A stretch of DNA of 57,037 bases from a virus (lineage: Duplodnaviria; Caudoviricetes). Below the pieces are notes generated by a model. It ran no database searches and was not told the origin of the DNA. It saw nothing but the letters and a program-made list of their open reading frames with translations. The stretch is taken from positions 1 to 57,037 of IMG/VR virus record IMGVR_UViG_3300027801_000026, one strand, 5' to 3'. Positions 8,517 to 54,258 of the stretch are shown here, one piece after another. Made by a program: the position numbers and the translations under genes. Position 1 is the stretch's first letter; every line of letters begins with the position of its first letter.

Positions 8517-8825
8517 TTATACTTCAGATGTTGTTAAAATTTCTTCTTTTTTTTCTTTTTCTTCTGTTGGAGTGAATATGTTAGTAGCTGGATCATAATT
8601 ACCATCACCATATTTGCCATTCAATCCCTTAAACATTGTTTGTTCTTTTTCGACTAAACCTGAATGTTGAGATATTAAATCTTTTTCAACTTGTTCGAGT
8701 TCATCTAGTCTTCTTTTCTTTTCTATTTGAAGTTGTCCTAATCTTGTAAAAAGATTTGCAACATCTTGTCTTAGTTGTTGTACTTCTTGTACTTCTTCTT
8801 TTGTAAACTTAATTGTTTTCGCCAT
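8517..8825 (-). CDS. Small coiled-coil hypothetical protein (possible fibre chaperone)
   Basis: 102 aa with a heptad pattern and a KYGDGNYDP tail. Has its own promoter motif at 8858-8866. Confidence 0.7.
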   Translation of the reverse strand: MAKTIKFTKEEVQEVQQLRQDVANLFTRLGQLQIEKKRRLDELEQVEKDLISQHSGLVEKEQTMFKGLNGKYGDGNYDPATNIFTPTEEKEKKEEILTTSEV

Positions 8826-8896
8826 TTTGATATATTTTTGTTTTTGTCAAGTGTATATATAAATATATAGTTTTTTAATAAACGTTAAATTATTAT

Positions 8897-34882: not shown

Positions 34883-35302
34883 CTATAAAGACTGTTTAAA
34901 TAACTTCATCGCTTCATCTAATGTATCAACATATTCATTGTTTACTCTAAATTGATTTGAATCTGAATTATATATGATATGAATACAATCTTTAACAAGT
35001 AATCTGTTTTCGTTATTCTGTGTTGGGGTAACTACTCTTAGGTTTTCTAACTTATTGTTTTTTCTATCTCTATCAATGTGGTCTACATTCATTTTATTCG
35101 GTATCTCACCCTTCCATGCTTGTAATACTAATCTATGAATTAACTTAGTTGCTACAACTTTATCTTTCCTTAGATTTATTTGTACGTACCCTTTCTGATT
35201 ATATCTTGATTTAAGAATTCTATTTGTTTTCTTATTACGAACAGTTCCTTTGTTAGAAATCTCGTATCCATCATATAATGGGTGTGTTTTATATTGTTCC
35301 AT
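34883..35302 (-). CDS. Free-standing NUMOD4-HNH homing endonuclease
   Basis: YEISNKG.VRN, IHRLV and VDHIDRDRKNNKLENLR motifs. Likely start ATG 35302. Confidence 0.85.
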   Translation of the reverse strand: MEQYKTHPLYDGYEISNKGTVRNKKTNRILKSRYNQKGYVQINLRKDKVVATKLIHRLVLQAWKGEIPNKMNVDHIDRDRKNNKLENLRVVTPTQNNENRLLVKDCIHIIYNSDSNQFRVNNEYVDTLDEAMKLFKQSL

Positions 35303-35316
35303 GTATATAAGTATAG

Positions 35317-35349
35317 AAAAAAGGGGTATTAACATAAAGTGTACCCCTT
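35317..35349 (-). terminator. Second terminator-like hairpin downstream of the MCP gene
   Basis: AAGGGGTA/TACCCCTT stem followed by a T run. Confidence 0.6.
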
Positions 35350-37087: not shown

Positions 37088-38254
37088 TTATTTAATATTT
37101 GCTAGTTGTTTGAATCTATCAGCCATCGTGTTAGTTGATTCAGTAATTACTTCCTTAGAAGGAGCAGTACTTGCAACTGATTTAGATGCGAATGATTCAG
37201 TCAATTTCGCGGTTGGTTTTTGTTTTCTTGAAGTACCACCAATTTTTAGTGATTCAGCAAGAGTTGAAAATACTAATTTAACTTCTCTAACATTCTTAGT
37301 TCTGTCTAACGTTTCAACAACTTTCATTTTTTGGTCATTGCTTAAGTCATAAGAACGGAATAGTTTGTTAGTGTAAAGTAATTTAGCATTTAATAAATTT
37401 ACTTCGTTGATAGTTGATTTCAATTCCTTGATAGTACTTATTGCTTCTTCAAGCTCATTTTGTACTTCTTCAAGTTCATTAGTTTCTTCTACAACTTCCT
37501 CTTCAGATTCATCATCTTCTCCGTATCCCATTTCTTTAAGGATCTCGTCTAAGTTGATTTCTTCATCTAATTCTTCTTCAAAGTCTTCATCTTCTTCTTC
37601 AGAAACTTCTTCACCTTCAGATTCTTCATCATGATGTTCTTCTTCGATTTCTTCTGCAGGAACTTCTTCCTCTTCAGAAACTTCATCTTCGTGATGTTCT
37701 TCTTCGTGTGCTTCAACTTCGTCTGATGCGATATCGGATACTTCTTCAGATTCTTCATCATCAAGTTCTTCTTCAAGTTCTCTAATGATTGCCTCTAAAT
37801 CAAGTTCGTCTTCGTCTTCTTCAGATTCAACTTCTTCTTCTTCAGAAACTTCTTCTTCAGCTTCTTCAGCTGGAGCTTCAACTTCTTCTTCAGAAACTTC
37901 TTCTTCTTCTTCGGATTCATCTTCAGCTTCATCAGCTTCAATTTCTTCTTCTTCAGTTACAGTTTCTTCAGTTACTTCTTCACCTTCTTCAGATTCTTCT
38001 TCTTCAGTTACAGTTTCTTCAACTACATCTGATTCTTCTCCTTCTAATTCGTGTGTTTCTACTACTTCGTTTTCTTCAACTTCTTCTTTATCTTCATCCG
38101 CTTCTTCAATTTCTTGAGTTAGTTTCTGAGATAGAATAGATTGTAAACGAGGTGTGAACGCTTCTTCTAAAGCGATTTTAGCGTTTGCGATTGCAGTAGC
38201 CCTTACAGCTTTTGCATCAGCGATAGCTTCTTTTAACAAATTTGAGTTTGTCAT
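37088..38254 (-). CDS. Prohead scaffold/core protein (gp22-like)
   Basis: Extremely Glu-rich middle region; EVNLLNAKLLY motif; directly upstream of the MCP gene. Confidence 0.8.
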   Translation of the reverse strand: MTNSNLLKEAIADAKAVRATAIANAKIALEEAFTPRLQSILSQKLTQEIEEADEDKEEVEENEVVETHELEGEESDVVEETVTEEEESEEGEEVTEETVTEEEEIEADEAEDESEEEEEVSEEEVEAPAEEAEEEVSEEEEVESEEDEDELDLEAIIRELEEELDDEESEEVSDIASDEVEAHEEEHHEDEVSEEEEVPAEEIEEEHHDEESEGEEVSEEEDEDFEEELDEEINLDEILKEMGYGEDDESEEEVVEETNELEEVQNELEEAISTIKELKSTINEVNLLNAKLLYTNKLFRSYDLSNDQKMKVVETLDRTKNVREVKLVFSTLAESLKIGGTSRKQKPTAKLTESFASKSVASTAPSKEVITESTNTMADRFKQLANIK

Positions 38255-38775: not shown

Positions 38776-39111
38776 TTATGATATTTTTTTTACGATAAAA
38801 TCAATATCTAAAAGAATCCCATATCCAGCACCTTCGTAGTTATACATTGGTTTGAATTTTAATTTAGTTTTCTTTTCAGCGTATTTGGCCAATTGTTTAG
38901 TTATATCATCTTTTGATGTATTACCTAATTTTTCTATCTTATCCAACTCAACTGATTTTCTAGGGATGAATTGAATTATAGGCTGTCCGTTATGTGCTTT
39001 CCTACCACCGGTTACCAAGAAATCAGGAAATACCGATGGTAAATCGGATTTATTATCAGTAGATTGTAACACTACCTTTCCTTCATTAAGTATATCTGAA
39101 AGTTTTATCAT
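38776..39111 (-). CDS. Putative internal head protein (MIKLSDILNE leader)
   Basis: 111 aa; leader shared with 41526 and 42748. Confidence 0.65.
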   Translation of the reverse strand: MIKLSDILNEGKVVLQSTDNKSDLPSVFPDFLVTGGRKAHNGQPIIQFIPRKSVELDKIEKLGNTSKDDITKQLAKYAEKKTKLKFKPMYNYEGAGYGILLDIDFIVKKIS

Positions 39112-40862
39112 TATGATAATTGAAATAGTTTTTCTTCTGCAGCTGCATTGGTTCTGTAATCATAATGTTTTGAATTTACTCCAAAATCTTTTAGGGATTT
39201 TTCTAACCAAATTCTATATTTTATTTTACCATACTTTTTTTCTACTTTAGAAAGTATATCGTAAAATTTAGTTTCAGATTTACCAGATTTCTTTTTAAGT
39301 TGAGATATTTCTTTTTTATCTTCTTTAATTTCATTACGTCTCACTATCATTCCCGCACCACCATCCTTTTTAACGGATTTTAAAAACTTCTTTGCATCTG
39401 ATTCAGATTTATAAGAAGCAGTTGCTGGTTTTATACTACGGTTTGATACATCTTTTTTAACTTTAAACAATACATGAAATGGAGTTCCTTCTGTAATTGT
39501 AGATTCATCTAAATCTATCATTTTATCAAATTCAACAAATGATATAGCATCTTTGGGGTTTACTTTGAATTTCTTGGCGGCCTTTAATACAAGTTCTCTT
39601 GTGATTTTAGAGTTTGGTAATTTATCAATTAGTTTAGAAAAGTTACCATCTACCCATACCTTTGGATTCTTAGTAGTTTTTTCGTTAACTGATGATTCAT
39701 TAAATACAGTATAATTTTTGATACCTATCTTCTTTACAAGTTTATCAATTGCATGATAATCTCTATCAGGATGATTTCCATCTCCAAGTTCTATTTCAAC
39801 TTGACCTTTAGTTGGTCCGATTTTACTTACTTGTACTTTATATTTTTTATTTATCTTTTGGACTGCCTTTTTTAAAGCATCTACCTTATTAGAATTTGGT
39901 GGAGTTACCGATTCTCCAAATAATCCTACTAAATCTCCTTGGTATTTATTTCCTGGTCTACCAGAAAGTGCAGTTGCAAAATTCAATCTATCTTTTAACT
40001 TACCTTTTTTAAGAAATTTAAAAAGTTCCTTATCATTAAGGCTATAATCTTTTATAAATTTTTCTACTGCAGAACCACGAGTTCCTGTTAATCCAGCAAT
40101 ACCCATTGATAATTTACTAACTTCATTAATATTTTCTGCAAACTTAACCAAATCTCTAGCTCTTTTAACTAAAGTTTTAGAAGGGATACCATATGTATCA
40201 CTCATTACATCTTGTGTGAATTTGTTTGTTAGGAAACCTTGTAGTTCTTTTTTAGTAGCAACACCAACTCCGAATGAATCTTTTGCAACTTTATCTAATT
40301 CTTGAGCAGTTAACTTACCTTTAAAGTAATCTGTTAATGCATCTTTTTTAAAGTTGTATTTCTTTTCGTTTACTACTGATTCGAATGTTCTCTTCTTAGA
40401 TTTAGATACAATTTTTAAATCTTTTTCTTTTGCTAAGATGTATTTTTCAAATCTTCCATCTTTACCTAAGTTAACTTTGTATTCACCATTATCATATCTA
40501 ACTACATCACCAACAAACTTTTTCTTATATTTAGGGTCTATCCATTGAACTCTTGCATCGTAAAATTTTGGATTGATTTTTTCGTTTATTATAGATTCGT
40601 TTGGTGATGTTTGTACCGAACCGGTTGTTATAGTACCTGTTGATGTTCTATTACTAAATTTAACATGCTCTTCATCTAATACAGTTCCTTCGTATATAGA
40701 TTTAAGATATTTGATAAAATCAGTATCTTTACTCATACTCTTAAACTCTTTATCTGAAAAGACTTTCTTAACAAAGTCTCTAACATCTTTAGAATCTTGT
40801 CTTATTTGGTCTATTTGAGAAAACATACCTTCGTTCATAGTTGATTTGTTTTTATTATCCAT
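39111..40862 (-). CDS. Putative internal head polyprotein (about 8 small basic modules joined by ES..NE linkers)
   Basis: Likely start ATG 40862, overlapping the upstream stop. Linkers TMNE, NESIINE, ESVVNE, ENINE, NESSVNE, ESTITE, NEIKE. Confidence 0.65.
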   Translation of the reverse strand: MDNKNKSTMNEGMFSQIDQIRQDSKDVRDFVKKVFSDKEFKSMSKDTDFIKYLKSIYEGTVLDEEHVKFSNRTSTGTITTGSVQTSPNESIINEKINPKFYDARVQWIDPKYKKKFVGDVVRYDNGEYKVNLGKDGRFEKYILAKEKDLKIVSKSKKRTFESVVNEKKYNFKKDALTDYFKGKLTAQELDKVAKDSFGVGVATKKELQGFLTNKFTQDVMSDTYGIPSKTLVKRARDLVKFAENINEVSKLSMGIAGLTGTRGSAVEKFIKDYSLNDKELFKFLKKGKLKDRLNFATALSGRPGNKYQGDLVGLFGESVTPPNSNKVDALKKAVQKINKKYKVQVSKIGPTKGQVEIELGDGNHPDRDYHAIDKLVKKIGIKNYTVFNESSVNEKTTKNPKVWVDGNFSKLIDKLPNSKITRELVLKAAKKFKVNPKDAISFVEFDKMIDLDESTITEGTPFHVLFKVKKDVSNRSIKPATASYKSESDAKKFLKSVKKDGGAGMIVRRNEIKEDKKEISQLKKKSGKSETKFYDILSKVEKKYGKIKYRIWLEKSLKDFGVNSKHYDYRTNAAAEEKLFQLS

Positions 40863-41526
40863 TACAACCACCTTTAGTTATTCCACCACATCCACAACCA
40901 CAATCTGATTTAGATTCTTTTACTGATTCTTTAAGATTTAAACTTCTTTGAGCATTTACCAACCCATCGATGAATCCTTTTAACATTTTTTTAGTTCCTG
41001 CCTCATCTCTTGCTTTAATCGGTTTTTCTAAAACTTTTACATTATTTTTTATATATTTAACAATTGCATTATCAACTGCTCCCCATCTTATTTCTGCTTC
41101 GTTTACTGATTCATTAGTCATTCCCAAACGGTCTTTCATTTGGTCTTCGGTAATTTCACCCAACTTATAGTATCGAGAAAGAATGTGTCCCATATCTTCA
41201 TATAATCCAGCCATTCTTTGGTCTAATCCTTTTGCTTCAACAGCACATTTATCAAATTGCTTACCCAACTTATCCAATTCACTCATGTTTCTCTTAACAG
41301 TATGTTTATCGAACCAATCATCACCTTCATGTATTGCAAGTGTTCTTGCTGCTTCTGTGATACCACCAAGTGTTTCTGCGATTTCTTGAAGATCAGATTT
41401 TCTATCAAGTGATTCTTGATATTTGTTGTATGTAGAAACAATTTCTAAGAAGTGTTTTTTAACTTCTAAAGAAAGAGGTCTTTTTTCCTCACTTGCTTCT
41501 TTTAATAATTGAGTTAATTTAATCAT
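40855..41526 (-). CDS. Putative prohead core/internal protein (MIKLTQLLKE leader)
   Basis: 223 aa; NESVNE and KESVKE linkers; CGCGC tail; AAGGAG SD. Confidence 0.7.
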   Translation of the reverse strand: MIKLTQLLKEASEEKRPLSLEVKKHFLEIVSTYNKYQESLDRKSDLQEIAETLGGITEAARTLAIHEGDDWFDKHTVKRNMSELDKLGKQFDKCAVEAKGLDQRMAGLYEDMGHILSRYYKLGEITEDQMKDRLGMTNESVNEAEIRWGAVDNAIVKYIKNNVKVLEKPIKARDEAGTKKMLKGFIDGLVNAQRSLNLKESVKESKSDCGCGCGGITKGGCNG

Positions 41527-41536: not shown

Positions 41537-42748
41537 TTAAAATAATTTTTTTAATTTAGTGTCTTTATAAGTATCAGCGTAATACCACTTCTTATCTTTC
41601 ATATTATATAAATATACAAATTCAGCACCATTCTTACTATCAGCAGCTTTTAGATATGATTCAACATCTTTAGAATCACCTTTTTGTGGTTGTCCACTTT
41701 TATAGTATTCAATATCCTTATCATTAAAGATTCCTCTTGCTCCACCCATCTTGATTAGTTTAAGAACATCTTTATCATTTTTCATGTGATGTTTTAAACC
41801 TTTTTTCATATTTGATGGATAACCATCGTAGTGAACATATGCAGATATAATTTTACCGTTACTACCAATCACACCAACTTGAGAACGAGTTCCTTCGTTA
41901 ATTTGAATTGATTCAGGTATCATATCTGATATAGATGTTGTTGATTCATTCTTCTCATCGAAGATTGATTGTATTTTTGCTGCTAATTTATGTGAACCAT
42001 TCATTTTCAAATCAAATGCAATTGCATCTATTGATTCTTGACCATCCCAAGATGATTCTCCAGTTGCTGAATGAGCGATATCATCAGTACCCTCACTTGA
42101 ATCACCAAATGATGAACCCCATGCCGTATCTTTTTTCCATTCATCATATTCATCTGTGAACATTTCCGGTTTGTTTGGGTCATCTGAAGGATTCTTAGCA
42201 AGTTCAGGATTATCTTCTAAAACTGCAATAAGAGCTCTTGATTCAGAGTGAAAGTTTGCATCTGTTAAAGCTTCAACAGCTGCTTGAGACATTCTTTTTT
42301 CATATTCTTCTTTACCTAACTTACTTGGTGATACTCCTAAACTTTGTGCTTTTTTACGAACAACTTTGTTTACTTGAGGATTACCAGCTCTTGGTTTAGA
42401 TGGTTCTGATGTAGGTTCATCATTCTTCTTAGGTTCTTCTTTTTCCGGTTTATCAAAGATGTTCACTTTAGGAACATCTTTACCGGCAGAAGGTTCATCA
42501 CCTCCCTTCGCTGCTTTTTGCTTGTTATGAGTCCCTGCTTTTATTGCAGAATCTCGTGATTCTTTAGATTTGAAAACAGATACCACACCACTATCTTTAT
42601 TGATAGCAGTAAATGATTCAGCTTCTTGTAAAGCTTTTTTTGCTTGATAAGCAGTTCTTACACTATCTAATGTAGGTAGTGCATCACCAATTTGTCTATT
42701 TTCGAAACCTGGTGATGATTCATTTAGTAAATCTGTTAGTTTAATCAT
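41537..42748 (-). CDS. Putative internal head polyprotein (MIKLTDLLNE leader; C-terminal GTRS...HYDGYP domain)
   Basis: Likely start ATG 42748; linkers ALQE, KNES and ESIQINE. Confidence 0.7.
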   Translation of the reverse strand: MIKLTDLLNESSPGFENRQIGDALPTLDSVRTAYQAKKALQEAESFTAINKDSGVVSVFKSKESRDSAIKAGTHNKQKAAKGGDEPSAGKDVPKVNIFDKPEKEEPKKNDEPTSEPSKPRAGNPQVNKVVRKKAQSLGVSPSKLGKEEYEKRMSQAAVEALTDANFHSESRALIAVLEDNPELAKNPSDDPNKPEMFTDEYDEWKKDTAWGSSFGDSSEGTDDIAHSATGESSWDGQESIDAIAFDLKMNGSHKLAAKIQSIFDEKNESTTSISDMIPESIQINEGTRSQVGVIGSNGKIISAYVHYDGYPSNMKKGLKHHMKNDKDVLKLIKMGGARGIFNDKDIEYYKSGQPQKGDSKDVESYLKAADSKNGAEFVYLYNMKDKKWYYADTYKDTKLKKLF

Positions 42749-42752
42749 TTTG

Positions 42753-42956
42753 TTATTTCCTTTTATTTTTTCCTTCAACGATAATTTTTTTACTTGTATA
42801 TCTATCAAGTTTGCCGTCTTTAGTAAGTTTTACTTCATAATTAGTTTTACGAATATCATTGTGGCCACCCTTATAAGGAGAGTCACCAATTGCCTTCTCA
42901 TGTTTACCTAATTCTATCTTATTATTTTTAAGATAATCTTGAATGCTAAATGCCAT
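42753..42956 (-). CDS. Small hypothetical protein
   Basis: 67 aa, tightly packed after the protease gene. Confidence 0.65.
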   Translation of the reverse strand: MAFSIQDYLKNNKIELGKHEKAIGDSPYKGGHNDIRKTNYEVKLTKDGKLDRYTSKKIIVEGKNKRK

Positions 42957-42963: not shown

Positions 42964-43557
42964 TTAATTTAATTCTGTTATAATTTCTCTCATCAAATCT
43001 TGTGATTTACAATACTCATTACAAACCAAAGTTTGTTTTTGTAATTGTTTGGTCACAGATTCGTTCATTGGAGTCATAAATGCACCATGAGTTGATGGAT
43101 TAGAAACGAAATCCCAACCTATCAATTCAAAATCTTCACCTACTTTAACTTTTCCTTCTCCTATATTAACAACTGAACCCATTCCTCTTGAAGATATTCC
43201 AAGAAGGATTCCTGCCTTTAATAATTCTTTTAGTATATTTCCACTTGGAGTTGGTAATATCTCAACAGTACCTACTAAATCATCATTATCCCAATGAATC
43301 TCTCTTACGTTATGAGAAACATTCTTTAAATTGATTACCGAAGAATCTGGATGGTCTAATTCACCAAGAGCTCTTCTCTCTGTAATAAGTTGTTCGTATT
43401 TTTTGGCTTCTCTTTCTAAGATTTCTCTTGGATAGACTCTACCATTTTGATTTTCTGCACCTGCTCTTTGTAAAATACCTTTAACGATAGTTCTTCCGCT
43501 ATCATCTTCTTTTACTTTACCTTCGAACAGTCTTGTTTCTATTAATAAATTATTCAT
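42964..43557 (-). CDS. Prohead protease (gp21-like)
   Basis: NQNGRVY, GELDHP, VSH, GISSRGMGS and DFVSNPS motifs. Start 43557 via a TAATG overlap. Confidence 0.95.
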   Translation of the reverse strand: MNNLLIETRLFEGKVKEDDSGRTIVKGILQRAGAENQNGRVYPREILEREAKKYEQLITERRALGELDHPDSSVINLKNVSHNVREIHWDNDDLVGTVEILPTPSGNILKELLKAGILLGISSRGMGSVVNIGEGKVKVGEDFELIGWDFVSNPSTHGAFMTPMNESVTKQLQKQTLVCNEYCKSQDLMREIITELN

Positions 43558-43733
43558 TATGCTCCCCAACTTTTACGTTTTTTAAACAAATCAAAAAAGA
43601 TTGCTGAAACTTCTGTACGAATCATTTTTCTGATTGTATCCTCATCGGATTCAGATAATTCTTCGCTGATGTTCCCTAACTTAACGTTATGGATTTCTTC
43701 ATCAATTATTTCTAACAATTCTCTTTTGGTCAT
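43557..43733 (-). CDS. 58-aa hypothetical protein missed by the ORF track
   Basis: MTKRELLEIIDEEIHNVKLGNISEELSESDEDTIRKMIRTEVSAIFFDLFKKRKSWGA; fills the gap exactly and is coupled to the protease start. Confidence 0.75.
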   Translation of the reverse strand: MTKRELLEIIDEEIHNVKLGNISEELSESDEDTIRKMIRTEVSAIFFDLFKKRKSWGA

Positions 43734-43743: not shown

Positions 43744-44295
43744 TTATCCGATTTTCTTTAAAGAATGAGTATGTGTTGCAACCCAATCCTGTCCTTTTAA
43801 TCCTGCCATTGATGCAGCTTTCTTAATTGCTTCAACAGTATTTCTTGCTTTTACTTTATACTTATTCTTCTTAGATAATTTAACACCATTAAGATTCATA
43901 TCTGCGAAACTCATTTCCCACATTCCAAATCCTTCTTTGATTACTGATTCTTTAACTTCTTCTTTCGTATCATCATCTTTTTTATTTTTAGCTAACATTT
44001 TTTCAAATGCTGCCTTCTGTGCAGGTGATTGAGCTTCTTCAACTTTAACAGTTTCATCAGCAGAACCAAACGTGGGGTGTGTTCCGTTTCCTCTACCAAA
44101 TCGTTCGTTCTTTTCTCCTTTACCTTTCCAAGTTTTTTCAATATTATTAAAGAATGCCTTTTTTTCGTCATCAGACATTTTAGGAATTGATTTTCCTGCC
44201 TTATCTAACGCCTTTTTAAAGAACTCTTGATATTCGGATTCTTCTATCATAGTTTCTCTAACTATGTTTTTGAAATTTTCTCTAGTTATTTTCAT
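43744..44295 (-). CDS. Putative internal head protein
   Basis: MKITRENFKNIVRE leader; KVEE and KESVIKE linkers. Confidence 0.65.
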   Translation of the reverse strand: MKITRENFKNIVRETMIEESEYQEFFKKALDKAGKSIPKMSDDEKKAFFNNIEKTWKGKGEKNERFGRGNGTHPTFGSADETVKVEEAQSPAQKAAFEKMLAKNKKDDDTKEEVKESVIKEGFGMWEMSFADMNLNGVKLSKKNKYKVKARNTVEAIKKAASMAGLKGQDWVATHTHSLKKIG

Positions 44296-45071
44296 TTTTC
44301 TATCTCCTGTATGGTTCTGGCGATATTAATCAATCGCTCCTTTATCTTATAAATATGTTTATTTGTTCTTTTCCAATAATCTGATGAATCTAATTCATTC
44401 ATTGTTTTAATTTTGTTATACCAATTGAAAAACTTTTGAGTTTCAGCTAACTGATATTTTAGTTCTTTTAAACCCATTGCCATCTTCTTATGAGGATGTT
44501 TGGTTTCATCATTTTTTATTGCTAACCAACGATTTACTGGTCTTTTTACTTTAGCTTCGTTTACTGATTCTAATATCTTAGAGTTTTTTTCTATTGAAAG
44601 AATAACATTTTTTTCTCGTCTAATAGATATTCCTTTGAATGTCGATTTATTAAAATATTTATTCTGTCCACTTTGATAAGCCGCTAAAACATCATGGTGT
44701 GCAAATACACCACCTGGTATATTATATATGATAGTTCCTTTAGGTAATATTACATTCGTATAATCACCGATTCGTACACCCTTAACATCTCTTTTTAATT
44801 GGTACTTTCTATTATCTAAACCATATGTCCCACCACTCATAGTACCTGAGTTTGGTCTGAAAGATGCTTCGTTTACCTTACCAACTAATTTCATTCCAAG
44901 TTGAGTAGCTATTTTCTTCTTTTTATTCTTATCCTTACTACCATTATCAGAAAAAGCCTTAGGCGTAGAATAACCACTAACGTTTCCAGAAGTGGTTGAT
45001 TCATCTATCTCCTTTTCAATTTCTTGAATAAGTTCTGATATGTATTTATTTAGATTTTTGTCCATTGACAT
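44292..45071 (-). CDS. Putative prohead core protein with an inserted module
   Basis: IDE-STTSGNVSGYSTPKAF motif; VNEA...ESVNEA flank a ~100-aa insert. Confidence 0.65.
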   Translation of the reverse strand: MSMDKNLNKYISELIQEIEKEIDESTTSGNVSGYSTPKAFSDNGSKDKNKKKKIATQLGMKLVGKVNEASFRPNSGTMSGGTYGLDNRKYQLKRDVKGVRIGDYTNVILPKGTIIYNIPGGVFAHHDVLAAYQSGQNKYFNKSTFKGISIRREKNVILSIEKNSKILESVNEAKVKRPVNRWLAIKNDETKHPHKKMAMGLKELKYQLAETQKFFNWYNKIKTMNELDSSDYWKRTNKHIYKIKERLINIARTIQEIEK

Positions 45072-45918
45072 TTTTTATTTCCTTGATGAGTTCATAAGAT
45101 AACATTAATGCCGAAACTTGTTCATCTAAAATCTTCTTACCAACTTTTTGTTTTTTCAAAACATTGATGGTTTCTCTAAGTTTGATTTTAGTAATCTTAT
45201 CTTTCATTGATTGATACATCGAATGGAGTTCTGTGATGGTTTTTACTAATTCTTTAGAAAAGTATTCACCAAATTTAGAAGTGTTTGATACATTATTAAT
45301 ATATTCTCTTAACAATCCCTTTTGGTCAGAATTTAAATTAGTATATTTCTTATTAAATGATTCAGTTAGAATTTTAAAAGTAAGTAATCTTAAATCCTTT
45401 TCTTGTTTCTTATAATCTTCAATTAACCTATCTTCTTTTTCCTTTAAAGTAGTAACTTTAGTTGAGATGTGTTCTACAAGAGTAAACTTGGAATCAAATA
45501 CATCCTTTACATCAGTAACGTTTATTGCCTTTGCTTCAAATAACTTATGAATAGAAGCTAAAATCTTATAATTAGTAACAGGAGATGACATGAAATTATC
45601 AATATCTAATGTTTCCTTAATTACTTTAACAAGATTGTACTTTTCTCGTTTAAGTTTAGTATAATCCAATCGTGTGTGGGCCTCTAATATAGCATCAATA
45701 TACTTCTCCGCTTTGGCCTCCGAATTATACTTTTCATTGATCAATAGATTAAAAAGTCTTAGTTCTTTTGCCAGCTCACTTTTGCCTGCAAAGAATTCTT
45801 TTATGATTTCCTTCGATTTTTCTTCTGAACCATTTAACACTTCAAGTGTTATTTGTTTTGTTAGAAGCTCGAATAGAAACCCTGTGTTTTTAAATTTAGA
45901 GTGTCTTATTTTTTTCAT
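45046..45918 (-). CDS. Conserved head-morphogenesis hypothetical protein
   Basis: HSKFKNTGFLFELL N-terminus; helical; directly after the portal gene. Confidence 0.7.
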   Translation of the reverse strand: MKKIRHSKFKNTGFLFELLTKQITLEVLNGSEEKSKEIIKEFFAGKSELAKELRLFNLLINEKYNSEAKAEKYIDAILEAHTRLDYTKLKREKYNLVKVIKETLDIDNFMSSPVTNYKILASIHKLFEAKAINVTDVKDVFDSKFTLVEHISTKVTTLKEKEDRLIEDYKKQEKDLRLLTFKILTESFNKKYTNLNSDQKGLLREYINNVSNTSKFGEYFSKELVKTITELHSMYQSMKDKITKIKLRETINVLKKQKVGKKILDEQVSALMLSYELIKEIKNVNGQKSK

Positions 45919-45988: not shown

Positions 45989-47722
45989 TTAATTTTCCGT
46001 ATCTTCGAGGATATTGTCCTCATTTAACATGTCTGTGTCTTCGTGTAAATACTTTCGTTTTGATGAAATTCCATTGATATATTTCAATGCCGTGTCTTCG
46101 GAAGTTCGAGTACGTTTCGATGTTCTTTCTTTATCACCAAGTGGATCTCTACCTAATGGGTGCTTATCTTTCCCATATGTACCACCTTCTCTTGGTCTTC
46201 CACCTTTATTCTTAATCTCTTGTTTTATTTTTTCAATTGATTCTTCAATATCATCTGGTTCTTCATCTTCGGTTGCAGGGTCATTACCCTCATCTTCAAT
46301 AGAACGGAAACGGAATCGATCTTTCAAATCATCTAACATTCTAACTCTCTGTACATCTTGTTCTCCACCACTTAGTTTAAATATGTTTTCATATACCCAA
46401 TCTTTGGATAACATATTCAATCCTTGTATATCTTGAGCCAATCTAACTTTCTCACTCCACAAGTTTACTTTTTCTTGTTCGTATATTGTAGATGGATTAA
46501 CTAATGATAAACTAAAGTTAGTCATTTCTGAATCTTGTATTCCTTGTGCATATAAATGAACGATTGCAATTTTAGATAATTCTGAAACTACTGTTCTCTG
46601 TATTCTTTCAATTGTTCTTGCGAATCTTACATCCTCTGCTGCTAATGTTGCTTTACCATTTACATTTTCTTCATATCCCAAATATGCTCTTGGAATTTTT
46701 AATGCTGCAAACATTTTGTTTTTTAAGTAATCAATATCTTCAATAGATGCATATTCCATTCCTGCAAGATTATCAATACTTGTACCACTATCACCACCAC
46801 GAACAGGAAGATAGAAATCTTCTGTTAGGTTTTGCATATTGTATTTTAAGTTATAGTCACCGGTATTCTTATCAACAAAAGGAACTTTCTTCATCTTGTT
46901 AATAATTCTTTGCATATAGTTATCAACTTCCGTTGGAGGAATGTTACCGATATCAATTTTGAAAACTCTCTTTTCAGGTGCTCTCATAATTCTATGGATT
47001 AACATTGCATCTTCCATAAGAGATAATTGTTTCCACAATCTTCTCCCATTTTCAATCATTGATTTTCCATATGGTAACCAGTTTGTATCTGCTAATAATC
47101 TAAAATGTGCTATTTCAAAGTTTTCGTATTCTTCTTTACCATTCGGGTCTTCGGTAATTTTAAACTTAACTGAATTTGGATTAGTAGGGTCTGTTCTTTC
47201 TAATCGTTCTGTGTTGTAAACAGAATGTGGAGTAACATTTACAATACCCTTTCCATCTGCCACTTCTAAACCTAAGAAGAAATCACCATACTTACACATA
47301 TTTCTTACCCATGGCCATAAGTTGAATTCAACATTAAGGATATCATAGAATAAGTTATCAAGAACATCTTTTACTTTTTCGTTATCCGAGTGAACCATTA
47401 AAGTATCACCGAATTCGTTTTTTAATGTAGATTCATCTGCATATATATCAAGTGCCGAAGCTAATATAGGATCATTATCCATTGCATCGTAATCTCTAAA
47501 AACTTCTCTACGAACTTGTTGGTATGCCATTGATTGGGCACCACCTGCTTGCTCGAAGAACGATTTTTGTATCTTCGTATATCTATCTCTTAGAGAGGAT
47601 AGATTTGTTTGTTGTCTTTCATCACCGTCAAAAACTTTTCTTTTACCATCTTTGTCAATCGTTACGATTGCCGTAGTACGGAAGAGTTTTGTTAGACGTC
47701 CAAAAAATGAAGTATCTGCCAT
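45989..47722 (-). CDS. Portal protein (gp20-like)
   Basis: LMEDAMLIHRIMRAPEKRVFKIDIGN and EDFYLPVRG motifs. Confidence 0.95.
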   Translation of the reverse strand: MADTSFFGRLTKLFRTTAIVTIDKDGKRKVFDGDERQQTNLSSLRDRYTKIQKSFFEQAGGAQSMAYQQVRREVFRDYDAMDNDPILASALDIYADESTLKNEFGDTLMVHSDNEKVKDVLDNLFYDILNVEFNLWPWVRNMCKYGDFFLGLEVADGKGIVNVTPHSVYNTERLERTDPTNPNSVKFKITEDPNGKEEYENFEIAHFRLLADTNWLPYGKSMIENGRRLWKQLSLMEDAMLIHRIMRAPEKRVFKIDIGNIPPTEVDNYMQRIINKMKKVPFVDKNTGDYNLKYNMQNLTEDFYLPVRGGDSGTSIDNLAGMEYASIEDIDYLKNKMFAALKIPRAYLGYEENVNGKATLAAEDVRFARTIERIQRTVVSELSKIAIVHLYAQGIQDSEMTNFSLSLVNPSTIYEQEKVNLWSEKVRLAQDIQGLNMLSKDWVYENIFKLSGGEQDVQRVRMLDDLKDRFRFRSIEDEGNDPATEDEEPDDIEESIEKIKQEIKNKGGRPREGGTYGKDKHPLGRDPLGDKERTSKRTRTSEDTALKYINGISSKRKYLHEDTDMLNEDNILEDTEN

Positions 47723-47845: not shown

Positions 47846-49450
47846 TTAATCCTTTTTCTTAGTATCTAGTAACCAACTTAGGTCTTCTTCGTGTTCACCT
47901 ATTCTCATTTTCCATGGATTTTCATCCATAGAAGTGTTACCACCAAACCCACCTTCGAATCCCGCAGTTGATTGTCCTATTCCACCCAAAGTTTGTTTAG
48001 TTAAATCAATTCCTTCTTGTCTTAATCTTAATGCAGTATCACGTACCCACAATCCGATTGATAATGCCATCGTTAAATCATCATTATATCCTCTCATTGC
48101 TTCTGCCCTATTACCATGCCATATAAATGTAAACAATTCATCTATCATTCGTGTGGAACGTATAGTTACCGATTTTTCTCTGATATATTGTTCTAATTTA
48201 GATATAATAAGTGGTCTTGTTTTGGAAGTTGTTGAAAAACCAGGGACCATACCTCGTTCTTCTGCTCTGTATTTATTATGTAATTGATTTTCCACATCTA
48301 CATACTTTAAATCCTTACTCATATAGAATAAGTTCTGATATCCTCTATCAATTACTTGTTGAATTACTGCCCAACCAATATTAGCGTTTTCAATTACCAA
48401 TAATGCTTGATTATATTCAGTTGCAAGTGCTACCAAGAAATTTCCGAAATCTTTTGTATCTAACTTCCCTTTATATTCAGCAACTTGGGTTGAGGCCTCA
48501 ATATCAATCACGTGACAGGTGGAAAAATCACCCCCATCACCACGAGCAACATCAGCAACAACCATATATCCTCTATTGTAATTTGGATATTCCCATTTCC
48601 AAAGATTACCATCAAAACCAGTCTTTTCAATTGGTTCTTGACAATAAGTTTCTTTATAAAACATTAAAAGTTGTGGGTCTATTACAGTATCACCAGAAGA
48701 TACGAAATCACAATCACATTCTTGAGCCGCTCCTTTTGGTCCTAATAAAACTTCTTGTTCATCTCTCCATGCTTGATCTCTTTCAGGATGAATCGACCAA
48801 TGTAATCTGATATTATTAAATGTATTTGTTCCTTCTTCAGAACCTACCCATATTTTGTGGAAAAAGTTCCCAACACCATTTGGAGTAGAAAGAATAATTG
48901 CATTACCACCCGTTGATAAGGTAGATTGAGCCGAAACCCATATATCCTCAATTTTATCAATGAATCCCGCTTCGTCAAAGACCAAAAGTGATAGTGCTTC
49001 AGAACGCCCTGCATCCGATGCGGCTGAAGTTGCTTTAATCTGAGAACCATTTGAATATCTTAAAGATAATTTGTTATCTTCTACTGTGTTTTGTTTTAAC
49101 CACGAGGGTAAATATTGATTCATCACTCTAACCTTCGTTACAAGGTTCTTTGCAACTTCTTGCTTGGTTGCAATTACTAATACGTTAAAATCTTGGTTAA
49201 ATAACATCTTCCAAAGTGAAAATCCAGCAGTTAAGGTTGAAATACCTGTTTGTCGAGATTTTAGGATAATATTATATCTGTGTTTTGTAAATTCTTCAAC
49301 TGTTCTTTCTTGGAACTGATATAAATGGAATGGAATTTTACCACGTACAGGATGCTGTATCATACAATACTTCTTCATGAAATATGCCGGATCTGATGCA
49401 CATTTCTGATATTCAAGTTTTATTATATCCTTGAGTGATTGTTTGGCCAT
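47846..49450 (-). CDS. Terminase large subunit (gp17-like)
   Basis: KSRQTGIST Walker A, LLVFDEA Walker B, STPNG, ADVARG and DDL nuclease motifs. Confidence 0.95.
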   Translation of the reverse strand: MAKQSLKDIIKLEYQKCASDPAYFMKKYCMIQHPVRGKIPFHLYQFQERTVEEFTKHRYNIILKSRQTGISTLTAGFSLWKMLFNQDFNVLVIATKQEVAKNLVTKVRVMNQYLPSWLKQNTVEDNKLSLRYSNGSQIKATSAASDAGRSEALSLLVFDEAGFIDKIEDIWVSAQSTLSTGGNAIILSTPNGVGNFFHKIWVGSEEGTNTFNNIRLHWSIHPERDQAWRDEQEVLLGPKGAAQECDCDFVSSGDTVIDPQLLMFYKETYCQEPIEKTGFDGNLWKWEYPNYNRGYMVVADVARGDGGDFSTCHVIDIEASTQVAEYKGKLDTKDFGNFLVALATEYNQALLVIENANIGWAVIQQVIDRGYQNLFYMSKDLKYVDVENQLHNKYRAEERGMVPGFSTTSKTRPLIISKLEQYIREKSVTIRSTRMIDELFTFIWHGNRAEAMRGYNDDLTMALSIGLWVRDTALRLRQEGIDLTKQTLGGIGQSTAGFEGGFGGNTSMDENPWKMRIGEHEEDLSWLLDTKKKD

Positions 49451-50863: not shown

Positions 50864-53800
50864 TTAGAAGAAAATACCTAAGATTTGATTTACACTGGCG
50901 AATGTTCCAGTTAACTTAAAGGTGTTTCCATTATATAAAAATACAATACCTTCATTTGGTACAATTTTCTTAGAACCACCGATTGATTGTAATCTCCCAA
51001 GTTCTAATTTAAGTTTTTCAATCTTTTTTGGGTCACCTGATTTCTTAACATCTTTAATTGTCTTATCAATTCGTTTTTTCATATCACGAACTGCCGCTGT
51101 GGGATTTACAGTTAATGCAGATGAAGTAAATTCTAATACTTCTGCTCCTAATCCTAAGAATATCTGTTCGAACTTCATTACGTTTGTTTTAGATATTTTA
51201 ACTTGGTCTTGTTTATCTATTTTCTTAGACCATTCTAATGTTTTCTCATCAGTAATGTTTCTCTTGTCTAATCTAAATCCCTTATCGTAGAATGCCCATC
51301 TTTTAACTAATCCCATTTTAGTTTTGTTATCTAATGAAGAAGGAGAGTTTTTATCAACCCATTGAGACCACCATGCTTGATGATAATCTGCAACTCCATC
51401 AGTATCCTTTAAACTGAATTCTTTTTGTAGTTTAGATATCTGTGAATTATATTGAGAACGTTTTTTAGCTAAGTTCTGTGATTTAGGTAACTTCATAACA
51501 GGTGGGCCCTTTATAGTATAGTTATCTTGAACATCTTTATTGATTTGTGCAATCATACCTGCTAATACTCTTGCAGCATCTACGTTTTCACCAATTGCAA
51601 TACCATCATCATTGTACTCCATAGTTCCATGGAATACCAATAATGCTTGTCCATAAGGAATAACATTAACTGATGTTGGATATATTACTTCAAGGTTCAT
51701 AAAACACGCTCCTTGTTTGAATACCTTATCTCTTTGTTTTTCAGATAATGATTTAATAGAGTCTGAAAGGTCTTTCATTGCGAAGTTATAAGCTTTTTCT
51801 AATTCACCCCTACCAGCAAACTTGGTTGCAATTCCATTGATATCCAATGCATTTTCACCTTTGTTTTTTAAATGTCCTTTATTACGAGCGGCAACCAATC
51901 TCCCATCTCTCCATGAAATTGCCAATGCTTGACCATCTGTTTTTTCTCTTGCAAATTCCAATGTACCCTCTAATGCACGATTTACTATATCTTTAAGTTG
52001 TCCAAATGTTAAATTGATATCTGTATCAAATGGATGAGACATATGGCCATACGCACCACCTTCCATTAGAAGATTAGATTCGTTTATGTTTTCTTTTATT
52101 AAACTTTCGTTTTTTCCTTGGAATTTTTCACTCAATCTAACCATAGATTCTTTACTTCTAAAATCTCGGTTTGAACCTTTGTTATTTTTAAACCCAAATG
52201 ATTTATAAAACTGAACTAATCTTGTCTTAGAACCACCGAAATCCGAGGAAGGAGTGGTGAATAGAGTTTTATTATTAGAATCTGCGTATTTAATCAAATC
52301 TTTCATTACCTTAGAACCAACACCATTACCACGTTGTTCTTTTGGAACTACAATTCTATGTAATTCTAATCTATCAGGATATTCGTAAATATCTAAGTCA
52401 ACTTTGTATTTATTTGATAAATTACTTTCAATGTTTTCTTTTATTAAACTTTCGTTTTTTCCTTGGAATTTTTCAACTTCCTTTGCTCGTAATACTGGTA
52501 AGAATCTGAATTTAGCTCTTTTTATTATTCTTCCTTTTTTTCTTACTACGTTCTTATGAACTACTTGAGTTTGTGCAATAGATAAATCAGCTTTCTTAAT
52601 ACCAGGATATAATTCTTCTGAGAATTCGGCATAAACTTGTCTATATGCCATCTTGTAAGCAATCTTCTTAAGTTTAGAAAGAGGTTTTCTACGTTTCATT
52701 GTTCTTGCTCTTCTTCTAGCAATTTCCTTACCCTTTCCTGCCATTGCTGCTTTTCTTCTTAATCTATCAGCAGGTCTCATCTTACCTCGTTCATCGAGTT
52801 CTTCATTTAAACCCATCTTTTCTTGCCATGAATCAAATGCATCGAAATCATATTCTTGTTTTTGAGAATCCCATCCACATGAATGACATAAATACTTTTC
52901 ACTATCATCAGCTTCTATTTCCCATTGATGATTACATTTTTCACATTTAACTTCCGTACCAGCTAATTCTACAATTTGTTCAAATACATTTGGAGCTTTT
53001 TTATGATATCTAAAAGTTACTACCTTCTTACCATTAATTGTTGGTAAACCATGTTCATCTTCACCAATAGTTTTAACAACTACCTTTTTGTTTTTGAATT
53101 TACCCATTAAAAGAGTATCTCCAATTTCTACTGGTAATTTAATTATTTCTTGTAATGAATTTTCAAACTCTTCTTGAGATTTTTTATCACCTTGTTGAGA
53201 ATCTAATGATTGTTCTCTTTCGTCTTTATTAGTATCCAATCCACCTACTACTGAATATCCTACTAAGGAAGCTTTTCGTGTTACGTGTTTGAACCACTTA
53301 GAATATGCATCACTTGAATAGATATCAACTTGGTTAGTTGCAGTTTGTGCACCAAGTACACCAGCTGGGAATGGAGTTACTGCTTTAACAGGTCCGTTTG
53401 GATAAGTTGGGTGTTCATAATAATCTTCCAATTCCCTAGTAGTTATCATGTTTACTATTTCGTATCCAATTTTTGCTGCTCTTTTTGCATTGATACGAGC
53501 AAATACTTCATAGTTTGGAAAAAATATATTTGGTCCATCATCTGATTGTCCTATTCCTGATTTTGATGCTTCATTTATTAACCATTCTTCTATTCGTTCT
53601 TTTGGAATAAAAATACCTTCGTTTAATTTATCAGTAATTAACTTAAAGATGGTTTTATTAAATTTAGTAAATGCAGTATCTTTAAAGAATTTCTGTTTTT
53701 GGTCCTCCGAACCATTAGTTAGTCCATGTCGTACTTGAGTACCACTTACACCACCACCACTTATAGGTGCAGCATAAACATATCCTCTATCTCTATATCC

Positions 53801-54214
53801 TTCAGTTGGTTCACCTTTATATGGTTGGAAGTATTTCCCACCTAAACGTGCTTTATCCTTTTCACCAACTACGGTTATAAATGCAGTTGTTTCTTCTTCA
53901 AACTTTTTAAGTATTTCTGTTGGTTTGTATGGATTCTTAACTAAATGTATTTTGGAACTTGGAATTCCAAACATGGTTGTCATTATCTTTACCTTTTCTT
54001 TGAAGTTAAAAGGTGATTTTAGATTATCGGTTTTATTAGAAGTTCCTATGAATACATTATCCTTACCGAACTTCTTGACAAGATGTTGGTACGTACCATA
54101 GTGTCCTTTATGGAAAGGCTGAAACCTACCCACGTAGATAACTACTGTTTTATTAATAGGATTTCCATCCTCAAGTAGTATTTGTTCTACTAAATAATTT
54201 GAAAGTTCGCTCAT
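50864..54214 (-). CDS. Multidomain protein: HxGH nucleotidyltransferase + Zn ribbon + basic domain + GNAT + ligase-like nucleotidyltransferase
   Basis: GRFQPFHKGH; CEKC..CHSC; QRGNGVGS..FYKSFGF; EKTDG..EGIVF..FKLTG. Confidence 0.75.
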   Translation of the reverse strand: MSELSNYLVEQILLEDGNPINKTVVIYVGRFQPFHKGHYGTYQHLVKKFGKDNVFIGTSNKTDNLKSPFNFKEKVKIMTTMFGIPSSKIHLVKNPYKPTEILKKFEEETTAFITVVGEKDKARLGGKYFQPYKGEPTEGYRDRGYVYAAPISGGGVSGTQVRHGLTNGSEDQKQKFFKDTAFTKFNKTIFKLITDKLNEGIFIPKERIEEWLINEASKSGIGQSDDGPNIFFPNYEVFARINAKRAAKIGYEIVNMITTRELEDYYEHPTYPNGPVKAVTPFPAGVLGAQTATNQVDIYSSDAYSKWFKHVTRKASLVGYSVVGGLDTNKDEREQSLDSQQGDKKSQEEFENSLQEIIKLPVEIGDTLLMGKFKNKKVVVKTIGEDEHGLPTINGKKVVTFRYHKKAPNVFEQIVELAGTEVKCEKCNHQWEIEADDSEKYLCHSCGWDSQKQEYDFDAFDSWQEKMGLNEELDERGKMRPADRLRRKAAMAGKGKEIARRRARTMKRRKPLSKLKKIAYKMAYRQVYAEFSEELYPGIKKADLSIAQTQVVHKNVVRKKGRIIKRAKFRFLPVLRAKEVEKFQGKNESLIKENIESNLSNKYKVDLDIYEYPDRLELHRIVVPKEQRGNGVGSKVMKDLIKYADSNNKTLFTTPSSDFGGSKTRLVQFYKSFGFKNNKGSNRDFRSKESMVRLSEKFQGKNESLIKENINESNLLMEGGAYGHMSHPFDTDINLTFGQLKDIVNRALEGTLEFAREKTDGQALAISWRDGRLVAARNKGHLKNKGENALDINGIATKFAGRGELEKAYNFAMKDLSDSIKSLSEKQRDKVFKQGACFMNLEVIYPTSVNVIPYGQALLVFHGTMEYNDDGIAIGENVDAARVLAGMIAQINKDVQDNYTIKGPPVMKLPKSQNLAKKRSQYNSQISKLQKEFSLKDTDGVADYHQAWWSQWVDKNSPSSLDNKTKMGLVKRWAFYDKGFRLDKRNITDEKTLEWSKKIDKQDQVKISKTNVMKFEQIFLGLGAEVLEFTSSALTVNPTAAVRDMKKRIDKTIKDVKKSGDPKKIEKLKLELGRLQSIGGSKKIVPNEGIVFLYNGNTFKLTGTFASVNQILGIFF
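52086..52475. repeat. 45-bp perfect direct repeat flanking the GNAT domain
   Basis: atgttttcttttattaaactttcgttttttccttggaatttttca at 52086-52130 and 52431-52475. Confidence 0.95.
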
Positions 54215-54258
54215 ATGAAATATACCGTATCAATATATAAATATAACGTATTAGATAA

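Follow-up and report, generated by a model that had tools for sequence, protein, structure and literature searches.

Why would a phage encode, beside its DNA-packaging genes, a single long chain of enzyme-like modules joined by short linkers that end in glutamate? The question is raised by P0001, an open reading frame (ORF) of 1116 amino acids (aa) in IMG/VR virus record IMGVR_UViG_3300027801_000026; the window analysed here is the whole of that record (57 kb; CheckV completeness ~28%). On balance we think it probable that P0001 is a late-expressed payload polyprotein that is packaged, cut by the head protease and injected, a reading in which we infer the steps of targeting and cleavage. The coordinates given in an earlier sequence-only reading of this DNA coincide with exactly one ORF plus its stop codon, which divides as follows (window positions, strand, feature):

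50864..54214, minus: whole ORF P0001, 1116 aa plus stop codon (ORF call)
54170..54214, minus: leader, residues 1-15, MSELSNYLVE then QILLE with a candidate site after each; pattern M-x-x-h-x-x-h-[LI]-x-E (h, hydrophobic), common to three head-core proteins
53618..54169, minus: HxGH (HIGH-superfamily) nucleotidyltransferase (NTase), residues 16-199, nearest to NMNAT (Pfam, motifs)
53570..53617, minus: linker, residues 200-215, with LNE, IEE and INE sites (motif scan, model)
53147..53569, minus: 'DDGP' domain, residues 216-356, present in 30/149 family representatives, assigned to no family or fold
52967..53146, minus: small beta domain, residues 357-416, the most mobile module, its position varying among relatives
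52802..52966, minus: CxxC-(15)-CxxC zinc-ribbon module, residues 417-471 (motif, weak family signal)
52475..52789, minus: basic helical domain, residues 476-580, isoelectric point (pI) 11.7 (long helices predicted at pLDDT >90)
52431..52475, unstranded: direct repeat copy 1, 45 nucleotides (nt), encoding EKFQGKNESLIKENI, residues 581-595
52130..52429, minus: GNAT acetyltransferase cassette, residues 596-695
52086..52130, unstranded: direct repeat copy 2, 45 nt, residues 696-710, 345 nt from copy 1
52061..52084, minus: linker NESNLLME, residues 711-718, predicted disordered
50867..52060, minus: RNA-ligase-like domain of predicted covalent-nucleotidyltransferase fold, residues 719-1116 (398 aa; hereafter the C-domain)

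The earlier reading had proposed this same series of modules, and motifs, Pfam matches and, for the ligase-like part, fold plus motifs bear it out; every linker string it had picked out was located: ILLE at E15, KLNE/LINE at E199 and E215, SLQE at E356, QIVE at E416, LNEELDE at E471 and E475, NESLIKE at E593 and E708, and INE..LLME at E712 and E718.

The start of P0001 resembles the leaders of T4 internal head proteins. In T4, the first 10 residues of internal protein IPIII are reported to be enough for capsid targeting, which is ascribed to residues 4 and 7; processing is ascribed to residues 8 and 10 and is reportedly blocked by Asp in place 10, and the prohead protease gp21, which has LIE near its own N-terminus, cleaves C-terminal to Glu after L/I-X-E (PMC9026906). 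Residues 1-10 of P0001, MSELSNYLVE, match M-x-x-h-x-x-h-[LI]-x-E and so conform to the T4 capsid targeting sequence (CTS). The string ILLE, which the sequence-only reading had named as the leader, is present and supplies a second candidate site at E15, but the canonical 10-residue pattern stops at E10 (LVE). The six frames of the window contain six matches to this pattern, four of which begin long ORFs while two open ORFs of 14 and 15 codons. Three head-module ORFs between the protease and the major capsid protein (MCP) carry such leaders: MIKLTDLLNE at 42748, MIKLTQLLKE at 41526 and MIKLSDILNE at 39111. The TTG start annotated for 41537-42808 is probably wrong, and the ATG at 42748 yields the leader. 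In relatives of P0001, 7/3171 internal Met positions fit the pattern, and the strict leader stands at the N-terminus in 101 of the 120 close relatives. Where 24 distant representatives have a looser 15-residue form, the module after it is the NTase in 16, the beta domain in 3 and something else in 5, so the leader does not depend on what follows.

The window also encodes a candidate for the enzyme that would cut at these sites:

42964..43569, minus: prohead protease, T4 gp21 family, proposed processing enzyme (phrog_207, E = 7.8e-51; Peptidase_S77)

Its match to PF03420 (Peptidase_S77) scores 98 bits against a cut-off of 27, and its N-terminus reads ...NNLLIE. A late, structural-gene setting and a Glu-specific head protease had both been anticipated from the sequence, and the presence of this gp21-family gene in the same window agrees with them. 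Judged by its TerL, portal, protease and MCP types, the phage is T4-like: TerL (47846-49450) shares 56.5% identity with its counterpart in Microcystis phage Mel-JY01 and 53.8% with the one in Flavobacterium phage immuto, with weaker matches extending to T4-like cyanophages, the portal (45989-47722) matches phrog_213 and the MCP (35462-37060) matches phrog_138. A further feature lies just upstream of the gene:

54236..54243, minus: promoter-like box 21 nt upstream of the P0001 ATG; gene-strand reading TATTTATA

The string TATAAATA occurs 19 times on the plus strand and twice on the minus strand (total expected 11.6; 0/100 shuffles reach 21), and the TATTTATA box stands 20-52 nt upstream of 12 minus-strand start codons including that of P0001, the nameable ones being head, neck, tail and fibre genes. 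As a consensus match, this placement fits co-expression of P0001 with the structural genes.

We then mapped the linker motif [LI]xE, with the candidate cleavage position directly after Glu, along P0001. The protein contains 18 such sites, located in the leader (E10, E15), between NTase and DDGP domain (E199, E210, E215), DDGP and beta domains (E356), beta domain and ribbon (E416), ribbon and basic domain (E471, E475), basic domain and GNAT (E593), and GNAT and C-domain (E696, E708, E712, E718), and within modules (E385, E611, E825, E876); the share counted to the leader and junctions is 13/18. By module, the NTase (16-195) and the DDGP domain (216-353) have none and the 398-aa C-domain has two. 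Segments with a predicted local distance difference test score (pLDDT) below 50 comprise residues 196-201, 215-231, 284-288, 326-328, 354-356, 402-419 and 706-723, and E199, E215, E356, E416, E708, E712 and E718 lie inside them. Among the 39 ORFs of the window, [LI]xE exceeds z = 2 only in the MCP, the protease, head/neck-region ORFs 33666-34817, 40855-41526, 44292-45071 and 45046-45918, and P0001; for [LIVM]NE, only P0001 and four ORFs of the head module attain z ~3 or higher. One head-module protein without a family match (39111-40871, minus strand, 586 aa) has five [LIVM]NE motifs (NESIINE, ESVVNE, AENINE, NESSVNE and STMNE) against 0.4 expected (z = 7), and looks like a second linker-divided internal polyprotein.

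The motif also borders the modules wherever these occur in the family. We scored distinct junction contexts for [LI]xE within 12 aa upstream of a module start (background 12.9%) and found it before the NTase in 56/70, the DDGP domain in 69/71, the beta domain in 65/93, the ribbon in 29/39, the basic domain in 45/45, the GNAT in 4/5, the C-domain in 144/173, an HD module in 24/35 and a CCA module in 21/21, so that nine unrelated modules are preceded by the motif in 69-100% of contexts. Directly before the GGAYGH that opens the C-domain, 131 scorable representatives read LxE (68), IxE (34), LxM (12), LxC (11), LxA (2) or other residues (4); a further 16 representatives are without the motif and 2 begin at it.

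Relatives of P0001 differ from one another by whole modules exchanged at these linkers. A word-indexed search returned 2965 proteins at E ≤ 1e-3 among 7999 scored, and the best 120 relatives are 68-100% identical and 1001-1853 aa long. BLAST maps place the hot spots of broken colinearity at residues ~413-416, 458-498 and 586-718, and in 97 proteins 185/224 internal endpoints of high-scoring segment pairs, or 30/45 distinct positions, are no more than 5 aa away from the Glu of an [LI]xE (background 14%); the endpoints come from related sequences and are not independent. Downstream of the basic domain, the slot that the GNAT fills in P0001 holds CCA plus HD modules in 41 of the 120 close relatives, a lone HD in 22, a lone GNAT in 5, GNAT with HD in 1 and none of these cassettes in 51. 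In some relatives it is empty: P0096 reads ...EKFSPKNEQLIKENINETKLLQE followed directly by GG. Pfam and NCBIfam confirm the cassettes as PolyA_pol/CCA tRNA nucleotidyltransferase (NF009814, E = 1.2e-50), HD and DUF5661, and a Pfam tally over 34 long distant representatives gives CTP_transf_like in 21, DUF5661 in 9, PolyA_pol in 5, HD in 3, AAA_33 kinase in 3 and an SprT-like domain in 1. Position varies as well as content. The beta module can be first, directly after the NTase or directly before the C-domain, the C-domain stands ahead of the NTase in 5 representatives, and the CCA module retains its motif in either of two slots, following the ribbon in P0012 (...GLNE, then SKNFKLKVP) and ahead of the C-domain in P0016 (...LGE, then NTLKLKVP). 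NTase and C-domain occur together in 104/149 representatives, and the 639-aa homologue of Microcystis phage Mel-JY01 consists of these two. The proposal that the domain set is modular rather than invariant across relatives is thus upheld.

In the IMG/VR loci of these relatives, a homologue of orf218 lies directly downstream of the P0001-family gene in 34/34, followed by TerL in 33/34, the other locus ending first. TerL in these 33 loci shows 80-96% identity, and the length of the P0001-family gene ranges from about 880 to 1858 aa. The gene is split in 4/34 loci (L029, L030, L032 and L033), where a C-domain ORF overlaps the stop of the upstream ORF and begins MIRL(K/N)KLLSEVLLNE directly before GGAYGH, which is the MI(K/R)L...LL.E leader type of the head proteins in the window. 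That the C-domain, on becoming a gene of its own, gains a head-type leader exactly at the linker is in our view the strongest single argument. Stand-alone C-domain proteins of other phages likewise have short leaders that end in [LI]xE directly before GG.

Several loci show further peculiarities. Among the IMG/VR relatives, TerL matches in two pieces ~630-840 nt apart in L024 and L034 and in two abutting pieces in different frames in L038, which points to a frameshift or to an inserted element (intron, intein or homing-endonuclease gene) in their terminase gene. In L035 (6990-7941) the polyprotein frame is broken, resumes in another frame and stops again; a pseudogene, a frameshift or a faulty assembly could account for this. 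Adjoining a stand-alone C-domain gene, L003 (LR756500) encodes at 7277-9238 a 653-aa protein with a C-terminal HxGH-type NTase (FTLGH) and an N-terminal ENLDG stretch that is KxDG-like but without the Lys, an arrangement in which the ligase-like/NTase pair is retained as adjacent genes. A 915-aa homologue in a 484-kb phage (L002 5608-8355; LR756508) has a ParB/sulfiredoxin-like stretch (DGHHR) between leader and NTase.

At the DNA level, the GNAT cassette of P0001 is bracketed by perfect 45-nt direct repeats that both encode EKFQGKNESLIKENI. We found an exact repeat of at least 21 nt within the gene in 0/27 relatives examined, which rules out repeated linker-coding DNA as a general device of cassette exchange; confined to the lineage of this window, the repeat looks like a recent event. 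The GNAT itself (residues 604-694) matches Acetyltransf_1 at 24.9 bits (cut-off 20.7), Acetyltransf_7 at 27.0 (cut-off 27) and phrog_10691 at E = 2.9e-23, with an RGNGVG loop at 628; R/Q-x-x-G-x-G/A is the acetyl-CoA loop of GNATs. Its nearest relatives sit within giant virion-module proteins: 41 of 44 phage records found with tblastn match the GNAT region alone, including giant 'DarB-like antirestriction' or 'PLxRFG' proteins, and the one in Serratia phage Parlo falls within a 'DarB-like' protein of 3764 aa adjoining a virion structural protein.

What enzymes would such a chain deliver? The NTase has HKGH at 35-38 and SGTQVR at 157, which we take to be the second defining motif of HxGH nucleotidyltransferases, and its residues 26-108 match Pfam CTP_transf_like at 28.7 bits (cut-off 21), which together place it in the HxGH superfamily. 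It also matches phrog_395 'cytidyltransferase' (E = 1.2e-13), and 11 of its 12 matches to PDB sequences at E ≤ 1 are NMN adenylyltransferases, the best at 1.2e-5, over 55-70 residues. It falls below every NCBIfam NMNAT equivalog cut-off (best 31 bits against 127-449, with only residues 24-83 matched), and sequence comparison points to an HxGH-superfamily enzyme with NMNAT as its closest relative. The ribbon has CEKC at 424 and CHSC at 443, with a weak zinc-ribbon family signal over residues 417-452, and the basic domain counts 35 Lys and Arg in its 105 residues. The label 'core-protein-like' that the sequence-only reading had attached to the basic domain found no support, since its long helices gave no informative structural match: in VIA-align, the AlphaFold2 model of residues 196-600 (pLDDT 70; predicted TM-score (pTM) 0.35) yielded just generic helical matches to the basic region (Z ≤ 6.4). 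An ESM Atlas search with the DDGP and beta domains returned nothing at 0.9 or above, and we assign no fold to the DDGP, beta and basic modules.

The C-domain appears by fold and motifs to be RNA-ligase-like and to lie outside every named ligase family. Residues K758, D760, G761, R777, E842, H862, E1088, G1089 and K1100 are invariant in 18/18 and 34/34 aligned sequences and include KTDG at 758, EGIV at 1088 and K1100, so that the domain combines the invariant Lys in K-x-D-G of covalent nucleotidyltransferases with further acidic and basic residues, which would belong to ligase motifs III, IV and V, the Lys being that of motif I. An AlphaFold2 model built from an 18-row alignment is confident (mean pLDDT 88.9, pTM 0.84; only residues 706-723 below 50). 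In a Foldseek search of the PDB no match reached E ≤ 1e-3, and RNA ligases topped the list (best 7.4e-3). VIA-align over 48,161 chains gave RNA ligases as all eight best matches, at Z ~8, a range that the tool deems common: Naegleria ligase 5cot (Z 8.3, root-mean-square deviation (rmsd) 4.1, 188 aa aligned), REL1 1xdn (Z 8.3, rmsd 4.5, 195 aa) and T4 Rnl2 2hvq (Z 7.9, rmsd 4.4, 180 aa), with fungal Trl1 at Z 7.9, 7.8 and 7.4, T4 Rnl1 at 7.5, DNA ligases at 5-7 and capping enzymes at ~5. Each ligase alignment runs from model residue ~10 to ~405, which indicates catalytic strands at both ends and a helical insert of ~220 residues between them.

At the sequence level, residues 719-1116 match no Pfam family and the C-domain has no significant sequence or profile match to known RNA ligase families (Rnl1, Rnl2 and others). 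Its profile found only spurious ribosomal eS6 and TetR matches among PDB sequences, and hhalign against T4 Rnl2 was non-significant (probability 0.5%, E = 0.12), the single stretch of that non-significant alignment pairing K758 with the Lys of EKIHG, presumably the Rnl2 motif I lysine. DUF6267 annotates 24% of the nearest ESM Atlas cluster members, but 0/18 aligned members match it in Pfam (E ≤ 0.01), and we rejected it as a name for the domain. The ligase-superfamily call made in the sequence-only reading therefore holds at the level of fold plus motifs only, and we describe the domain as RNA-ligase-like, of no named family, because no sequence-level link to known ligases was found. The family is large: a search of 1.84 billion representatives with residues 706-1116 gave 1757 matches at E ≤ 1e-3, 1251 at 1e-10 and 551 at 1e-30, counted as clusters at 50% identity. 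The domain is mostly C-terminal in proteins of 206-1930 aa and at times stands alone (~410-440 aa).

Homologues of the NTase are known from virions. Foldseek against BFVD finds proteins labelled 'cytidyltransferase-like' in uncultured phages and in cyanophage S-PM2 (E = 3.3e-5). Liquid chromatography-mass spectrometry of CsCl-purified cyanophage S-SZBM1 particles is reported to have detected 'one enzyme (cytidylyltransferase)', S-SZBM1_140 (362 aa, 2 peptides, 13.5% coverage; PMC9146016), and virion detections are likewise reported for the S-CREM2 ORF154 'cytidylyltransferase' (3 peptides; PMC10665884) and the S-SCSM1 ORF91 'NMNAT' (PMC9602691). S-SZBM1_140 is 30% identical to P0001 residues 21-134 over 116 aa (E = 2e-8) and begins with a short leader ending IIE, followed by FGRFNPPHAGH. 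The gene upstream of it encodes S-SZBM1_141, which shows the motifs KWDG ... EGFV ... K and for which hhalign with the C-domain profile was not significant. S-SZBM1_139 (L042 4989-6362), a 457-aa virion-detected 'hypothetical protein' with an Ala/Gly/Ser/Lys-rich low-complexity C-terminal half, also adjoins the NTase gene. From the leader type of head-core proteins and the published detection of cyanophage NTases, packaging of P0001 is plausible, and the payload reading would offer a reason why NMNAT-like proteins recur in the virion proteomes of cyanophages.

Put together, the proposed sequence of events would run as follows. The 10-15-residue leader would target the protein to the prohead core, as the CTS does for T4 internal proteins; the gp21-family (Peptidase_S77) protease would strip the leader and cut after Glu in the [LI]-x-E linkers; and six to eight separately folded modules would be freed in the head and exit together with the DNA on infection. 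The constant core would comprise the NMNAT-like HxGH NTase and the new RNA-ligase-like domain, and the slots between them would accept swappable cassettes, here a GNAT and in relatives a CCA-adding enzyme, an HD phosphohydrolase, a P-loop kinase or DUF5661. Their most likely job would be the repair of RNA ends (tRNA), of the host or the phage, and of nucleotide cofactors ahead of phage protein synthesis, as a counter-defence. CCA-adding, HD and P-loop kinase activities are described as accompanying RNA ligases in known RNA-repair systems, and HIGH-superfamily NMNATs as fused to P-loop kinases in phage NAD synthesis (PMC7824862), which makes the kinase cassette ambiguous. Substrates not being readable from sequence, we favour repair of RNA ends (tRNA) as the first theme and NAD or nucleotide metabolism as the second. 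RNA repair, cofactor restoration and acetylation of host proteins had all been suggested for this gene, and the CCA-adding, HD and P-loop kinase cassettes point more to the first of these and less to the others. Packaged repair enzymes could act even under a translation block.

How far do the data support cleavage, or even packaging? Targeting, ejection and cleavage at each linker are all inferred steps, and a number of observations weigh against them. P0001 exceeds its shuffled versions in [LI]xE by a modest margin (18 sites, 10.6 expected, P = 0.012), and E210, E385, E611, E825 and E876 lie within predicted folded parts or the 200-215 linker. In the 196-600 model only 4/9 sites fall in segments with pLDDT <50; E471, E475 and E593 are in stretches of moderate confidence (block mean pLDDT ~62-84), of which only E593 is placed in a helix by the model. 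Some circularity attaches to the junction test, since the query module starts were set after the motifs, and its rows are related. At the C-domain junction the P1 residue is not Glu in 27/131 (LxM 12, LxC 11, LxA 2, QxC 1, DxN 1). P1 does not co-vary across junctions in the LxC and LxM proteins, whose other junctions retain [LI]xE, and LLx(E)GG is therefore at least partly intrinsic to the C-domain; of the INE..LLME linker proposed in the sequence-only reading, the sites are present, but the LLxE before the ligase-like domain is in part a motif of the domain itself. The strict leader is found in only 18/149 distant representatives and its looser form in 24/149, S-SZBM1_141 lacks a leader and is absent from the S-SZBM1 proteome table, and the co-occurrence of NTase and C-domain in 104/149 could reflect a need for physical linkage.

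Some of these points would suit a protein that is packaged largely uncut, losing the leader and maybe one or two further sites and acting as a multidomain 'polyvalent' protein, an explanation that we regard as unlikely. It would draw on the 104/149 co-occurrence, the non-Glu P1 residues at the C-domain junction and the linker sites that are not clearly disordered, and precedents are reported: T4 Alt sheds terminal propeptides only (PMC9026906), and N4 virion RNA polymerase is packaged without being processed, as are other polyvalent proteins (PMC5512222). It sits poorly with an [LI]xE that borders nine unrelated modules on their N-terminal side irrespective of the adjoining module, with permuted module orders such as the C-domain before the NTase, and with a natural split exactly at the linker in which the new gene has its own head-type leader. 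Still less probable, in our estimate, is a protein that is never packaged and serves as a cytoplasmic late enzyme of RNA or nucleotide metabolism, its Glu linkers being flexible spacers and DNA joints for cassette recombination. T4 Rnl1 and Rnl2 are ordinary cytoplasmic RNA-repair enzymes, the repeat around the GNAT shows DNA-level exchange at a linker, the overall motif excess is modest, and the S-SCSM1 authors note that abundant proteins may persist in CsCl-purified preparations (PMC9602691). The repeated joints are not general, however, being absent from all 27 relatives; the leader is like those of head-core proteins, and the split C-domain gene gains one of that kind; motif enrichment is otherwise limited to proteins of the head and neck modules; and homologues appear in at least three independent virion proteomes. 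We accordingly retain the packaged and cleaved polyprotein as our preferred interpretation.

More tentatively, since we hold it possible rather than probable, the gene would be a hypervariable 'payload locus' beside terminase, where any enzyme placed between linkers is automatically packaged, released and injected, and where core and cassettes form a tRNA and cofactor repair kit that acts before translation and thereby evades defences that halt it. If this were true, prohead-protease sites would constitute a general plug-in system for delivering enzymes with phage DNA, the whole-cassette differences in one gene among phages with TerL 80-96% identical would be explained, and pre-packaged RNA-end repair would be a translation-independent counter to tRNA-cleaving defences. 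The C-domain itself forms a large unnamed ligase-like family, with its 1757 clusters at E ≤ 1e-3.

Other genes of the window deserve brief mention. Upstream of P0001, 54341-57028 (minus strand) contains a 492-aa ORF without a family match, a transketolase-pyrimidine-binding-like ORF and an NAD-dependent epimerase/dehydratase, sugar-modification genes that border the packaging module. An HNH endonuclease (34883-35335, minus strand; phrog_59, E = 2.5e-28) lies between the MCP and a neck/adaptor gene, and between the head-core genes and the MCP, 37088-38254 (minus strand) encodes an extremely acidic 388-aa protein with long E runs and the N-terminus MTNSNLLKE, ending at a candidate site, which is probably a scaffold. 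Four tail-fibre or baseplate-like proteins have ORF N-termini at 11222, 17540, 18210 and 22721 (minus strand) that read MAQ(I/V)(I/V)KLKR or MAAILKLRRG, which suggests a common attachment module on otherwise unlike fibres.

We compared P0001 with known systems of packaged or repair enzymes. It shares with T4 IPI-III and Alt a gp21-family protease gene, a 10-residue leader (hydrophobic at 4 and 7, [LI]-x-E at 8-10), enzymatic character and a place beside head and packaging genes; those are small single proteins, whereas P0001 joins at least seven modules in a single 1116-aa chain that has candidate cleavage sites inside it, and family searches gave no similarity of P0001 to the T4 internal proteins or Alt. 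The processing enzymes of phiKZ, 201phi2-1 and SPN3US are diverged gp21 homologues, reportedly with other P3 preferences. As we propose for P0001, the inner-body and ejection proteins of these phages are described as cut after Glu at short motifs and ejected (PMC9026906; PMC5694885; PMC10052503), but they are mostly of unknown function, while P0001 is a recognisable string of enzymes with swappable cassettes.

The polyvalent proteins of Iyer et al. 2017 (PMC5512222) resemble P0001 in having disparate domains per polypeptide, a late or packaging context, GNATs, domain shuffling and a proposed delivery into the host. Release by an embedded peptidase is proposed there (PMC5512222), whereas P0001 matches no peptidase family and an SprT-like domain occurs in 1/34 relatives in Pfam. 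In the part of PMC5512222 that was available, the 'HIGH superfamily' is not mentioned, and 2H domains of polyvalent proteins are described as never seen with RNA ligases. The cyanophage NMNAT-like virion proteins differ from P0001 in being ~290-360 aa long and mostly single-enzyme, and the available portions of their reports describe no polyprotein or linker processing. They have a homologous HxGH domain in common with P0001 and come from purified virions, and S-SZBM1_140 has a leader ending in [LI]-x-E; in S-SZBM1 the ligase-like protein is, unlike in P0001, a separate neighbouring gene without a leader.

Among repair systems, T4 Pnkp with Rnl1/Rnl2 and the CCA-adding enzymes of jumbo phages offer a parallel, with a predicted ligase-like fold and KxDG/E/EG/K motifs in P0001 that are joined, in single polypeptides of its relatives, to CCA-adding, HD phosphoesterase and P-loop kinase modules. 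The C-domain departs from the Rnl families in its ~220-aa helical insert, which falls between motifs IIIa and IV, and in showing no significant profile match to them. To our knowledge, phage tRNA repair enzymes have not been described as virion cargo; in the open-access literature we found no packaged RNA-repair polyprotein, and no paper on Mel-JY01 or DUF6267. Set against these systems, what appears to be new here is an enzyme chain bounded by sites for a protease acting in trans, with cassettes exchanged at those sites among near-identical phages and with an unnamed ligase-like family as part of its core.

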